64,000 nt of DNA. Origin: Escherichia coli (GTDB lineage: Bacteria; Pseudomonadota; Gammaproteobacteria; Enterobacterales; Enterobacteriaceae). The notes beneath the pieces were generated by a model. That model made no database searches. It was not told the DNA's origin and saw only the letters and a list, made by a program, of their open reading frames with translations. The stretch is from assembly GCF_003334765.1 (NCBI RefSeq), contig NZ_QOWT01000002.1; one strand, given 5' to 3'. The translations under genes were made by a program, and so were the position numbers. The number at the start of each line of letters is the position of its first letter. The first letter of the stretch is position 1. Shown here one piece after another: positions 32,271-52,964 of the stretch.

Positions 32271-32345
32271 GTCCTCTTAGTTAAATGGATATAACGAGCC
32301 CCTCCTAAGGGCTAATTGCAGGTTCGATTCCTGCAGGGGACACCA
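32271..32345 (+). tRNA. argW: tRNA-Arg (anticodon CCU)
   Basis: 75 nt cloverleaf: acceptor GTCCTCT/AGGGGAC, anticodon loop cTCCTAAg, T-arm tgcag-gttcgattc-ctgca, encoded CCA. Confidence 0.9.
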
Positions 32346-32346
32346 T
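32331..32346. other. attL core (3' end of argW)
   Basis: ctgcaggggacaccat, identical to copy at 52949-52964. Confidence 0.8.
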
Positions 32347-32506
32347 TTATCAGTTCGTTCCCATCCGTACTTGTCCGCAAAATCCCCTGAATATCAAGCC
32401 TTCCGTAGATTCACAGTTCGTAATGGTTCGCGTCAGATCGTTGACAGCCGCACTCCATGACGGGTAAAAAGTGGATAAAATAATTTTACCCACCGGATTT
32501 TTACCC

Positions 32507-33664
32507 ATGCTCACCGTTAAGCAGATTGAAGCAGCAAAGCCGAAAGAAAAACCATACCGCCTTCTCGATGGTAATGGCCTGTACCTTTATGTCCCTGTGT
32601 CAGGGAAAAAGGTATGGCAGCTTCGCTACAAGATTGACGGTAAGGAGAAAATCCTGACCGTCGGAAAATATCCGCTTATGACTTTGCAGGAGGCAAGGGA
32701 TAAAGCATGGACCGCGAGGAAAGACATCTCGGTTGGCATCGATCCGGTAAAAGCGAAAAAGGCTTCGTCTAACAACAATTCCTTTAGCGCCATTTACAAG
32801 GAATGGTACGAGCACAAGAAGCAAGTCTGGTCAGTAGGCTATGCAAATGAACTTGCAAAAATGTTTGATGACGACATTTTACCCATCATCGGCGGCCTTG
32901 AAATTCAGGATATTGAGCCGATGCAACTTCTTGAAGTAATCCGCAGATTTGAAGATCGCGGTGCAATGGAACGAGCCAACAAAGCACGCAGAAGATGCGG
33001 CGAGGTTTTCCGTTACGCTATTGTCACCGGAAGGGCTAAATATAACCCGGCACCTGACCTTGCTGACGCCATGAAGGGATACCGCAAGAAGAACTTCCCG
33101 TTTCTTCCTGCAGACCAGATCCCGGCATTCAACAAAGCACTGGCAACATTTTCAGGAAGTATCGTATCGCTCATTGCGACCAAGGTTTTACGCTACACAG
33201 CCCTCAGAACAAAAGAGCTTCGTTCCATGCTATGGAAGAACGTCGATTTTGAAAACAGGATTATCACCATCGACGCCAGTGTGATGAAGGGACGCAAAAT
33301 TCATGTGGTTCCTATGTCAGACCAAGTGGTTGAACTTCTCACTACGCTAAGCTCAATAACCAAACCAGTCTCAGAGTTTGTTTTTGCCGGGCGCAACGAT
33401 AAGAAGAAGCCAATCTGCGAGAACGCGGTACTGCTTGTGATCAAACAAATCGGCTATGAAGGTCTGGAAAGCGGTCACGGATTCAGGCATGAATTCAGCA
33501 CGATTATGAACGAGCACGAATGGCCTGCCGACGCCATTGAAGTGCAACTTGCACATGCCAACGGCGGATCTGTGCGCGGTATTTACAACCATGCTCAGTA
33601 TCTCGATAAGCGCAGAGAAATGATGCAGTGGTGGGCGGATTGGATTGATGAAAAGGTGGAGTGA
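32507..33664 (+). CDS. intS: tyrosine integrase
   Basis: ORF open from 32471; MLTVKQIEAAKP start; C-terminal catalytic R...HxxR...Y region. Confidence 0.9.
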   Translation: MLTVKQIEAAKPKEKPYRLLDGNGLYLYVPVSGKKVWQLRYKIDGKEKILTVGKYPLMTLQEARDKAWTARKDISVGIDPVKAKKASSNNNSFSAIYKEWYEHKKQVWSVGYANELAKMFDDDILPIIGGLEIQDIEPMQLLEVIRRFEDRGAMERANKARRRCGEVFRYAIVTGRAKYNPAPDLADAMKGYRKKNFPFLPADQIPAFNKALATFSGSIVSLIATKVLRYTALRTKELRSMLWKNVDFENRIITIDASVMKGRKIHVVPMSDQVVELLTTLSSITKPVSEFVFAGRNDKKKPICENAVLLVIKQIGYEGLESGHGFRHEFSTIMNEHEWPADAIEVQLAHANGGSVRGIYNHAQYLDKRREMMQWWADWIDEKVE

Positions 33665-33856
33665 TCCGCCTTAACAACTATCGAATATCACAAAGCCTTG
33701 TAATCCAGTGCAAAGCTTTGTGTACCTTAGTTTTGTCTCATAGGTAATTCTGCTTTAACTGCGATGTAGGAATCTGTCACCAGACGCACGTCTCGTTGTT
33801 TTATGGTTTTCCGTTCATGATTAATATGTTAGCTTGTCAAAGTTTGTGTTTAAGAT

Positions 33857-34528
33857 ATGGTGATTGATGCAATGTTAAGCGTTCAGATGACTCCACAAGC
33901 AAAAGTTAGCTTCGAGGAGCAATGTTTTTTTCATGCTTCAGGTCTTGTTGTTGCCCCAATAAATGTTGGAGCATTCTCCTACTTTGGCGCTAATTGTATG
34001 CTCGGCGGCTTTACGATGGGTAGATTCTGTTCAGTTGCTCCAGGAGTAAAAATTGGCCTTGGCGAGCATGAAACTGGGTATTTTTCTACGCATCCTTTTT
34101 TCTTTGGCTCAAAAAATGGTTTTAAAATCCCTGATGGTATAGGAATGCAACGCGACCTCTCTCAACAGAAGCATGGTATACCAAGAATTGGTCATGACGT
34201 ATGGATAGGTGCAAATGCGGTTATCAGGCGAGGTATAACTATTGGTACTGGCGCTGTTATTGCTGCTGGCGCTATTGTCACCAAAAATGTCGAGCCATAT
34301 TCAATCGTAGGTGGCGTTTCTGCAAAACACCTAGGGTACAGATTTGAGGAATCAATCATCAAAGAGTTACTGGATAGCCAATGGTGGGAATATGATTTAA
34401 GCTCATTTATTGGGATTGATACAAGGACACCGACGACTTTTTTAGAGCAGTTTAATGCTGTAAAAGATAAAAAGAAGGCATCTTATAAGAGATTTACAAT
34501 TCTTCCATCCGGTGAAATTGTTGAATAG
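33857..34528 (+). CDS. hexapeptide-repeat acetyltransferase (candidate lysogenic-conversion gene)
   Basis: 223 aa, left-handed beta-helix repeats ([28 protein letters not shown]); AT-rich. Confidence 0.7.
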
Positions 34529-34547
34529 CGCATCCCTGCGCTATATT

Positions 34548-52363: not shown

Positions 52364-52543
52364 ATGTCTTGTCCAAAATGCGGTTCTGGAAATATTGCAA
52401 AAGAAAAAACAATGCGTGGATGGTCTGGTGATTATGTGTGCTGCGATTGCGGATACAACGACTCTAAAGACGCATTTGGAGAGCGTGGTAAAAACGAGTT
52501 TGTTAAAATTAATAAAGAACGCGAAGGCAACGAAAAAAGCTAA
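52364..52543 (+). CDS. small zinc-ribbon protein
   Basis: MSCPKCGSG...CCDCG two CxxC pairs; RBS ggaggt. Confidence 0.5.
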   Translation: MSCPKCGSGNIAKEKTMRGWSGDYVCCDCGYNDSKDAFGERGKNEFVKINKEREGNEKS

Positions 52544-52608
52544 TTTATTTATTCATATATGAAAACAATGTAACCAATATTCGAATTGAAGAACTGAAAG
52601 AACACCAA

Positions 52609-52630
52609 GCCGCCTGATGGCGGTTTTTTA
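52609..52630 (+). terminator. rho-independent terminator
   Basis: ccgcc-tgat-ggcgg followed by T6. Confidence 0.7.
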
Positions 52631-52674
52631 TTACCTGATTTGCAGGTTCGATTCCCTATTCGGAGATAGCACTC

Positions 52675-52875
52675 ATGCAACACGAACTACAGCCTGATTC
52701 ACTGGTTGATTTGAAATTCATCATGGCCGATACTGGCTTCGGTAAAACCTTCATCTATGACCGGATTAAGTCCGGCGACCTGCCAAAAGCCAAAGTTATC
52801 CACGGGCGAGCAAGATGGTTATATCGTGACCATTGTGAATTCAAAAATAAGCTCTTAAGCCGCGCCAATGGGTAA
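52675..52875 (+). CDS. torI: excisionase / tor operon inhibitor TorI
   Basis: 66 aa Xis-like winged helix at prophage end adjacent to dsdC. Confidence 0.85.
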   Translation: MQHELQPDSLVDLKFIMADTGFGKTFIYDRIKSGDLPKAKVIHGRARWLYRDHCEFKNKLLSRANG

Positions 52876-52948
52876 AATAGCGGGTAAAATATTTCTCACA
52901 TCTAAAAAACACCATTCCAATCAATCCCCTGCCGCTTCAAGTAGATGT

Positions 52949-52964
52949 CTGCAGGGGACACCAT
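52949..52964. other. attR core
   Basis: ctgcaggggacaccat, direct repeat of argW 3' end. Confidence 0.8.

Follow-up and report, generated by a model that had tools for sequence, protein, structure and literature searches.

The prophage at argW and its recombination module

The argW-dsdC interval of Escherichia coli is highly variable, and P22-like prophages that carry the KplE1 recombination module, together with remnants of such prophages, are well described there. In this report, we describe an element at this site in a 64-kb stretch of E. coli contig NZ_QOWT01000002.1 (hereafter the window). The element, 20,634 bp long with both copies of its attachment core counted, is very probably a cryptic P22-like prophage (Lederbergvirus, HK620/Sf6/N7 group) that entered the 3' end of argW through a KplE1-type IntS/TorI system and was then disabled by deletions. 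An earlier note, made from the letters of this DNA, had described a defective prophage at argW in which a P22-type late and immI end is joined to a lambda-type early end. The defective prophage is fully supported; the union of two phage types is not, because the early region is HK620-like, the element is collinear with P22-like genomes and the join appears to be an internal deletion. Gene content was assigned with PHROGs, Pfam, NCBIfam and Rfam, and identities were taken from a per-protein tblastn matrix.

The boundaries of the element are well defined. Exactly two copies of the 16-mer CTGCAGGGGACACCAT are present in the window, at 32331-32346 and 52949-52964, in line with the 16-bp direct repeats of the earlier note, and none arose in 100 shuffled sequences. 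The left-hand copy forms the 3' end of tRNA-Arg(CCU), the only tRNA gene that ARAGORN finds in the window, and the 16-mer is the published KplE1 core (PMC2951348). On the left the element is flanked by yfdC and on the right by dsdC-dsdX-dsdA-emrYK-evgAS, and both flanks are 100% identical to those of K-12-like E. coli chromosomes. Five GGGTAAAA/TTTTACCC repeats are clustered at 32462-32506 and 52870-52889, and the P' sites of KplE1 share TAAA (PMC2951348). The attachment sites and the two recombination genes are as follows.

32271-32345, plus strand: argW, tRNA-Arg(CCU), its 3' end restored by the attL core (ARAGORN, Rfam)
32331-32346, plus: attL core CTGCAGGGGACACCAT, identical to the KplE1 core (PMC2951348)
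32347-32506, plus: P' arm of attL, overlapping the intS promoter; 99% identical to K-12 attL
32441-32446 and 32465-32470, plus: hexamers TTGACA and TAAAAA of PintS (-35 and -10 as in PMC2951348)
32462-32506, plus: three GGGTAAAA/TTTTACCC repeats, candidate IntS arm sites (motif enrichment)
32507-33664, plus: intS, intact tyrosine integrase of 385 amino acids (aa); 383/385 identical to K-12 IntS; phrog_1
52675-52875, plus: xis/torI, recombination directionality factor of 66 aa; 66/66 identical to K-12 TorI
52870-52964, plus: attR, with two GGGTAAAA repeats in its P arm and the core at 52949-52964; 99% identical to K-12 attR

This module is that of KplE1, HK620 and Sf6: integration at the 3' end of argW with a duplicated 16-nucleotide (nt) core, an IntS-type integrase paired with a TorI/HkaC-type directionality factor, int and xis at opposite ends of the prophage, and a dedicated intS promoter that overlaps attL. 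IntS and TorI are 98-100% identical to their counterparts in HK620, Sf6, N7 and K-12, and the 99% alignment of attL and attR with K-12 takes in both PintS hexamers. P22 and lambda gave no tblastn match to the integrase or the excisionase, and the P22 integrase and excisionase likewise found none in this element. The earlier note's comparison with the K-12 element KplE1 (CPS-53), which has the integrase and excisionase at opposite ends, is confirmed (IntS 99%, TorI 100%, attL and attR 99% identical), as is its estimate that the present element is about twice as long (20,634 against 10,215 bp). This arrangement is the norm of the family rather than a peculiarity, because an attP located between int and xis, which places the two genes at opposite prophage ends (PMC8787464; PMC3509656), is the defining layout of the KplE1/HK620/Sf6/CUS-3/Kapi1 module (PMC8787464, PMC2951348), and the module is conserved in HK620, Sf6 and CUS-3 (PMC2951348).

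Between the attachment sites, all of the genes listed in the earlier note are present in the order it gave (PHROGs, Pfam). The left part of the element carries a conversion-type gene, a tailspike gene, an immI region and ejection genes.

33857-34528, plus: hexapeptide-repeat (CatB/Vat-like) O-acetyltransferase, putative surface-polysaccharide conversion gene (Pfam Hexapep; name given by PGAP in GF4 and AVS0578)
34548-36914, minus: tailspike, 788 aa, with P22 head-binding domain and pectate-lyase-like beta-helix (Pfam, PHROGs)
36978-36997, minus: terminator-like hairpin between ant and the tailspike gene, at the position of the P22 ant terminator (P22 annotation)
37015-37893, minus: ant antirepressor, 292 aa, intact; phrog_245; 85% identical to P22 Ant over 59% of its length
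37895-37961, plus: sar antisense RNA of immI (Rfam RF00262, 65.6 bits against a gathering score of 43)
37962-38123, minus: arc, 98% identical to P22 Arc
38158-38191, no strand assigned: overlapping divergent Pant-like and Pmnt-like promoters in a P22-like layout (11/12 and 10/12 consensus matches)
38214-38468, plus: mnt, 81% identical to P22 Mnt (Pfam Repressor_Mnt)
38465-39205, plus: two small cargo open reading frames (ORFs) at the P22 sieA position, between mnt and gene 16 (phrog_3870, phrog_2651)
39230-41071, minus: gene 16-like ejection protein, 613 aa, intact; phrog_770; 75% identical to P22 gp16
41068-42197, minus: gene 20 pseudogene with a 286-bp deletion and frameshift (alignment with intact copies; tblastn with N7 gp20)
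42208-42903, minus: gene 7 ejection protein, full coding sequence, now the C-terminal half of a fusion ORF (phrog_598 over aa 230-458)
42907-42908, no strand assigned: deletion junction with a 2-bp microhomology (TA), joining primase codon ~228 to the gene-14 stop codon
42907-43590, minus: 5' 36% of a toprim primase/helicase gene (aa 1-228 of 626); phrog_239; 99.1% nt identity to the full-length gene of GF4

Two features of this part point to Lederbergvirus. Tailspike residues 1-113 are a P22 head-binding domain (PF09008, E = 2.4e-65), and the ejection genes 7, 20 and 16 lie in this order upstream of the tailspike gene (gene 20 being a pseudogene here). The gene 7 product is 97% identical to gp7 of HK620 and N7. 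In addition, the immI region is of the P22 type and complete, with mnt, arc, ant, sar and divergent overlapping promoters. Over the whole window, tRNA and sar were the only Rfam matches.

The right part of the element comprises replication, immunity and early-left genes.

43698-44558, minus: O-like replication initiator, 286 aa, intact (phrog_277; PF04492)
44551-45313, minus: hkaW-like DUF2740, cII and cro, 100%, 98% and 100% identical to HK620
45345-45384, no strand assigned: OR operators, two AATACYNNNRGTATT copies between cro and cI
45420-46136, plus: cI repressor, 238 aa, with helix-turn-helix (PF01381, HTH_3) and S24 LexA-type peptidase (PF00717, Peptidase_S24) domains; 100% identical to HK620 cI
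46156-46524, plus: hkaS-like ORF, 122 aa, hydrophobic, a putative membrane protein by its sequence; 96% identical to HK620
46656-46697, plus: OL operators, two copies, overlapping a pL-like promoter
46892-48663, plus: N, orf156, HNH/AP2 endonuclease, cIII (48392-48526, plus) and kil
within 48745-52543, plus: early-left genes orf103, RecT, Gp157-like, orf104, DUF2737, orf99, Ead/Ea22, dNTP pyrophosphohydrolase-DUF551 and a 70-aa ORF with a weak Lar_restr_allev Pfam match

The immunity genes cI, cro and cII are 98-100% identical to HK620 and only 43-63% identical to lambda (tblastn). The early region is therefore not of the Lambdavirus type; to judge from its sequence it is an HK620 immunity region and is lambdoid in organisation only. 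The operator sequence AATACYNNNRGTATT has four matches in the window, all at OR or OL, against 0.44 expected. The comparison with P22, Sf6, HK620 and lambda proposed in the earlier note thus upholds its P22-like kinship and removes its lambda-type early end. To our knowledge, a lambdoid early region is present in all P22-like phages. The RecT/Gp157 block and several Ea ORFs had no match in five reference phages and match other E. coli prophages, such as that of F719; these mixed affinities are the mosaicism of modules that is usual among P22-like and lambdoid phages.

What the element lacks is equally informative. All 57 annotated features of N7, an intact phage, were translated and compared with the whole window by tblastn, and no match was found for terminase, portal, scaffold, coat, gp4, gp10, gp26 or gp14, nor for NinB, Dam, RusA, NinH, Q, holin, lysin or spanin, in agreement with the earlier note, which had listed terminase, portal, coat, scaffold and lysis genes as absent. 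Without the P22-type terminase, portal, scaffold, coat and genes 4, 10 and 26, the element is a remnant of a P22-like phage, with its head and packaging genes deleted, and not a functional member of the group. It has the hallmarks of a defective (cryptic) prophage: it is bounded by attachment sites and derived from a phage, and essential lytic functions, including primase, Q, lysis and head genes, are missing.

The deletion junction and the order of decay

Gene order in intact relatives suggests how these functions were lost. Opened at attP, the genomes of N7, HK620 and Sf6 run from int through a conversion gene, tailspike, (immI), 16, 20, 7 and 14 to 26, 10, 4, coat, scaffold, portal, terminase, lysis, Q and nin, and end with the replication genes, cII, cro, cI, N, early left and xis. 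The order and orientation of the genes in the element match this map, and the order agrees with that of N7, opened at attP, from coordinate 9560 to ~30600; collinearity with sequenced members is thus a further Lederbergvirus feature. The missing genes form one contiguous, same-strand block of ~18 kb when scaled on N7, and the progenitor would have measured ~39 kb, the usual size for the group. Because the missing genes are contiguous on one strand in intact relatives, we infer a single internal deletion by illegitimate recombination, from primase codon ~229 to the gene-14 stop with a 2-bp microhomology, rather than the joining of two phages.

The junction itself is consistent with such an event. 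Megablast alignments to 5426 complete E. coli genomes stop at window position 42908. To the right, 4.2 kb of the window align at 99.1% identity with the GF4 prophage, in which the primase is full length (626 aa); to the left, the window follows intact P22-like prophages through the final bases of gene 14 and into gene 7. In the window the junction reads ...GGCGTTA followed directly by GCCATGTTAT. On the minus strand ...TCTCGGCGTTA is followed directly by GCCATGTTATAT, where the GF4 primase gene reads ...TCTCGGCGTTATCCGTACC and the intact late region reads ...GGGAGATAGCCATGTTATAT. The dinucleotide TA is all that the two parent sequences have in common at the crossover, and the join is not at a repeat. 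The junction point lies 4-5 nt upstream of the gene-7 ATG (42903-42901), and the gene-14 stop codon TAG is absorbed into 'TTA GCC', so that the primase frame reaches that ATG and enters gene 7 as an in-frame fusion. The resulting ORF (42208-43590, 460 aa) carries the N-terminus of the toprim primase in residues 1-228 and gp7 in residues 230-458. The earlier note, which had listed a primase fragment, missed both this in-frame fusion with gene 7 and the gene-20 pseudogene.

The second lesion lies in gene 20. Aligned with the intact copies of APEC20/16 and F719, the gene shows a clean gap of 286 nt between two 7-bp ACATGGA repeats at ~41370-41377. By tblastn, the gap removes residues 277-371 of N7 gp20 and places the downstream portion in another frame; the retained N-terminal part is 100% identical to N7.

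The junction occurs in none of the 5426 complete E. coli genomes (0/5426). The exact 460-aa fusion protein is nevertheless recorded on seven contigs in a public collection of 15 billion proteins, where it forms a singleton cluster and is named just 'hypothetical protein [Escherichia coli]'. In a contig look-up, ten contigs carrying the fusion protein were read, and three loci were fetched. L008 (GCA_965137835.1) is identical to the window over the aligned stretch except that it retains the 286 bp; L009 (ERR11457625) also retains them and otherwise differs by one mismatch; L010 (SRR3951470) is 100% identical over the aligned stretch, gene-20 deletion included. L008 and L009 encode an intact gp20 of 471 aa (gene 20 at 11394-12809 in L008, 9881-11296 in L009 and 11394-12523 in L010). 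The presence of an intact gene 20 beside the same junction in L008 and L009 places the ~18-kb deletion first, and the 286-bp deletion followed in a sublineage that includes the window. The lineage thus offers a clean, dated order of decay.

Alternative explanations

Several points weigh against the proposed descent from one P22-like phage by internal deletion. No intact progenitor was found among complete E. coli genomes and phage records, and the best coverage of the element at a single place is 53% (GF4), with 32% for phage N7. The single deletion is read from the gene order of relatives, not from a parent sequence, and part of the missing block may have gone in a series of nested losses of which the last junction alone survives. 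Identity to studied systems is the ground on which expression, SOS inducibility, excision and HK620 immunity are predicted.

A hybrid of two phages or prophages, with a P22-type late and immI end joined to the early end of a lambda-type siphovirus, would account for the RecT and cI-N blocks, which also match lambda-like siphoviruses such as HK140 at ~95%, and module exchange does occur among lambdoid phages. We consider this origin improbable, since the immunity block matches the podovirus HK620 at 96-100% identity and lambda at only 43-63%, the order and orientation of genes are exactly those of intact P22-like genomes, and a 2-bp microhomology inside two same-strand genes ~18 kb apart is the signature of a deletion and not of homologous module exchange. 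Still less probable is a phage satellite (a phage-inducible chromosomal island, PICI, or P4-like element) with an integrase, a repressor and a primase-type replicon that hijacks the capsids of a helper P22-like phage. Such an element could be seen in int, xis, cI, the O-like initiator, the primase N-terminus, the tRNA-gene site and the absence of capsid genes. However, the primase is a truncation (228/626 aa) of a gene that is 99.1% nt-identical in GF4, leaving no intact replicon; virion genes (tailspike and ejection proteins) and a full lambdoid early region are present; neither PHROGs nor the N7 tblastn detected a terminase small subunit, a capsid-size-redirection gene or another packaging gene; and the layout is what remains of a phage after removal of one block and does not resemble that of a satellite. 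The least credible alternative is an assembly artefact in which two contigs of an intact prophage were misjoined. The absence of the junction from complete E. coli RefSeq genomes had first prompted a reading as a one-off or artefact, which we rejected once the exact protein was found on at least seven contigs; the fusion occurs in several assemblies that were made independently in different sequencing projects (7 contigs recorded, 10 read), and the join lies outside any repeat. The three fetched loci have identical flanks and differ in their gene-20 state, and this combination of a shared junction with differing gene-20 states rules out mis-assembly.

Selection on the remnant has also to be considered. 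The element might be a domesticated island, kept for HK620-type immunity, polysaccharide acetylation, a protein resembling immunity proteins of the type VI secretion system and an excision switch triggered by SOS; we regard this as unlikely, and we are equally doubtful that the in-frame primase'::gp7 fusion serves to place the ejection genes under pR. In favour of domestication, the regulatory and att-proximal genes are all intact while the lethal modules are gone, the independent deletions of GF4 and F719, with other endpoints, keep tailspike, ejection and att-proximal genes, and the element persists in several isolates. Against this, any internal deletion retains att-proximal DNA, an in-frame fusion has a 1-in-3 chance of arising, the isolates are essentially clonal (100% identity), so that their number says little about selection, and the later gene-20 frameshift in the sublineage speaks against selection on the ejection genes. 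A broader version, for which the prospects are likewise poor, holds that such deletions (this one and those of GF4, F719 and KplE1) were repeatedly selected as 'immunity and conversion islands', losing the lethal replication, lysis and head block but neither the conversion genes near the att sites nor the excision module; that selection kept the repressor as well, in this element and in GF4, is no more likely. If it were true, SOS-induced excision and loss would act as a stress-responsive switch of polysaccharide acetylation and phage immunity.

Predicted behaviour, cargo and relatives

For the remnant of a P22-like prophage that we favour, the retained genes suggest the following behaviour. 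In the lysogen, the HK620-type cI would keep pL and pR closed via the OR and OL operators and would confer immunity to phages of HK620 immunity; Mnt, Arc and sar would hold ant off; and genes with promoters of their own (the acetyltransferase, intS and the Rap1a-like ORF) could still be expressed. Because cI has a LexA-type S24 domain, derepression of pL is expected under SOS conditions. The cI sequence contains an IQAG/S stretch, a GDSM serine motif and a downstream lysine (read from the sequence), and we take the IQAG/S stretch to line up with the Ala-Gly cleavage site of lambda. Once cI is cleaved, N would let transcription from pL reach torI, and IntS, TorI and integration host factor (IHF) would then excise the element. 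Excision by these three proteins has been shown for KplE1, which is flanked by the 16-nt core and is excisable in vivo, without a repressor and not SOS-inducible (PMC2951348); the near-identity of proteins and sites leads us to predict the same for this element. The excised circle would neither replicate (primase/helicase truncated) nor express late genes (Q and pR' gone), and it would be neither packaged nor released by lysis, so that induction would be expected to end in loss of the element rather than in phage. The tailspike gene is probably silent here, Q and pR' being deleted; Berget, Poteete and Sauer are said to have found in 1983 that P22 gene 9 expression needs antiterminated late transcription past the terminator that precedes it.

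The acetyltransferase-tailspike pair is rare, being present in four of the 5426 complete E. coli genomes at >=80% coverage. The same pair (locus L007, 20171-23213; 99% identity) lies next to torT in AVS0578, within a P22-like prophage for which the fetched stretch shows annotated genes for tail, head, packaging and lysis alike; the pair is therefore a working mobile module. The central domain of the tailspike recurs, at 93-96%, in 'glycosyl hydrolase family 28-related' genes from other prophages, and its C-terminus has a weak endosialidase-chaperone-like region (Pfam). NCBIfam gave no equivalog-level assignment for the acetyltransferase, whose matches fell below cut-offs, the tailspike or the small ORFs. 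The acetyltransferase gene lies where Sf6 has oac, P22 and K-12 have gtrABC and CUS-3 has neuO, and this shared position suggests by analogy that its product may modify the polysaccharide recognised by the tailspike. A NeuO-like, phase-variable enzyme was considered and rejected: there is no heptanucleotide tract, and identity to the CUS-3 neuO region is just 34% over 79 aa.

Of the two small ORFs at the sieA position, one (111 aa) belongs to the Rap1a/Tai family (PF18602, Rap1a) and resembles immunity proteins against type VI amidase effectors; the other (129 aa) has a hydrophobic N-terminus that resembles a signal peptide when its translation is read by eye, and has no annotated function. 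Both may be morons that benefit the lysogen. Among the uncharacterised cargo ORFs, PADLOC found no known defence system, apart from a weak homing-endonuclease match of the HNH ORF. That ORF (175 aa, 47865-48392), with its HNH/AP2 homing-endonuclease-like domains, sits between N-proximal genes and cIII and is not at the corresponding place in HK620, Sf6 or GF4. In the early-left region, the ORF at 51596-52267 combines a dATP/dGTP pyrophosphohydrolase domain with DUF551; public gene calls start it 14 codons later (209 aa).

Among named relatives, KplE1 shares with this element its site, its 16-bp core, near-identical IntS, TorI, attL and attR, an intS at attL with its own promoter, torI as the last gene before attR, and the lack of head and lysis genes. 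It is smaller (10.2 kb), lacks a repressor and reportedly does not respond to SOS induction (PMC2951348), and among its genes are conversion genes of the gtr type (yfdGHI) and tail-fibre remnants, whereas the 20.6 kb described here contain the whole immunity region of the HK620 type as well as immI, the tailspike gene, ejection genes and the hexapeptide acetyltransferase. The integrase and excisionase are the only proteins in common, in line with the earlier note's remark that the cargo differs. HK620 (Lederbergvirus HK620) shares the int-attP-xis module, the overall gene order and a near-identical immunity region; however, it is intact (38.3 kb), has a DnaB-type helicase instead of the toprim primase, immI remnants only, another tailspike receptor domain, an O-antigen polymerase-like gene in place of the acetyltransferase, and a Sak4/SSB recombination module rather than RecT/Gp157. 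The immI region follows P22 in its succession of mnt, divergent Pmnt and Pant, arc, sar, ant, terminator and tailspike gene, but P22 integrates elsewhere and has int and xis adjacent on one side of attP. In CUS-3 (E. coli K1 RS218, argW), attL, int, a hexapeptide-family O-acetyltransferase, a tailspike with an endosialidase-type C-terminus, ant, mnt and genes 16, 20, 7 and 14 recur; CUS-3 is intact, and its acetyltransferase NeuO lies on the other strand with a heptanucleotide repeat tract.

The prophage of GF4 (NZ_CP172217.1, locus L001), also at argW, is 97.8% identical over int-acetyltransferase-tailspike and 99.1% from primase to N, and it too lacks head, lysis and Q genes. Its deletion is independent, running from a dam-like methyltransferase to gene 26, and gene 14 and the full-length primase are kept; it has no immI and has other ejection and early-left genes. 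The P22-like prophage of F719 (locus L004, next to sbcB) was also independently deleted, having lost ral to gene 4. The deletions in GF4 and F719 remove head and lysis genes and spare tailspike, ejection and att-proximal genes; immunity is kept in GF4 and lost in F719. In CPS-53 of K-12 the reduction has gone further. P22-like prophages have thus repeatedly lost the central lethal block and kept their att-proximal genes, yet this outcome is expected of any internal deletion.

The element adds one member to a well-described group and is of little import beyond annotation. Its possible uses lie in particular features: the rare acetyltransferase-tailspike pair, the succession of the ~18-kb and 286-bp deletions and, unlike in the KplE1 of K-12, a repressor in a natural remnant, with which the coupling of SOS and cI to IntS and TorI could be studied without phage production. 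Outside the element, stretches of low GC content (36-43%) lie at window positions 21000-22000, 29000-30000 and 57000-64000. They cover core K-12 genes, which include yfdF on the left side and are emrKY-evgAS on the right side, and nothing unusual was seen in them.

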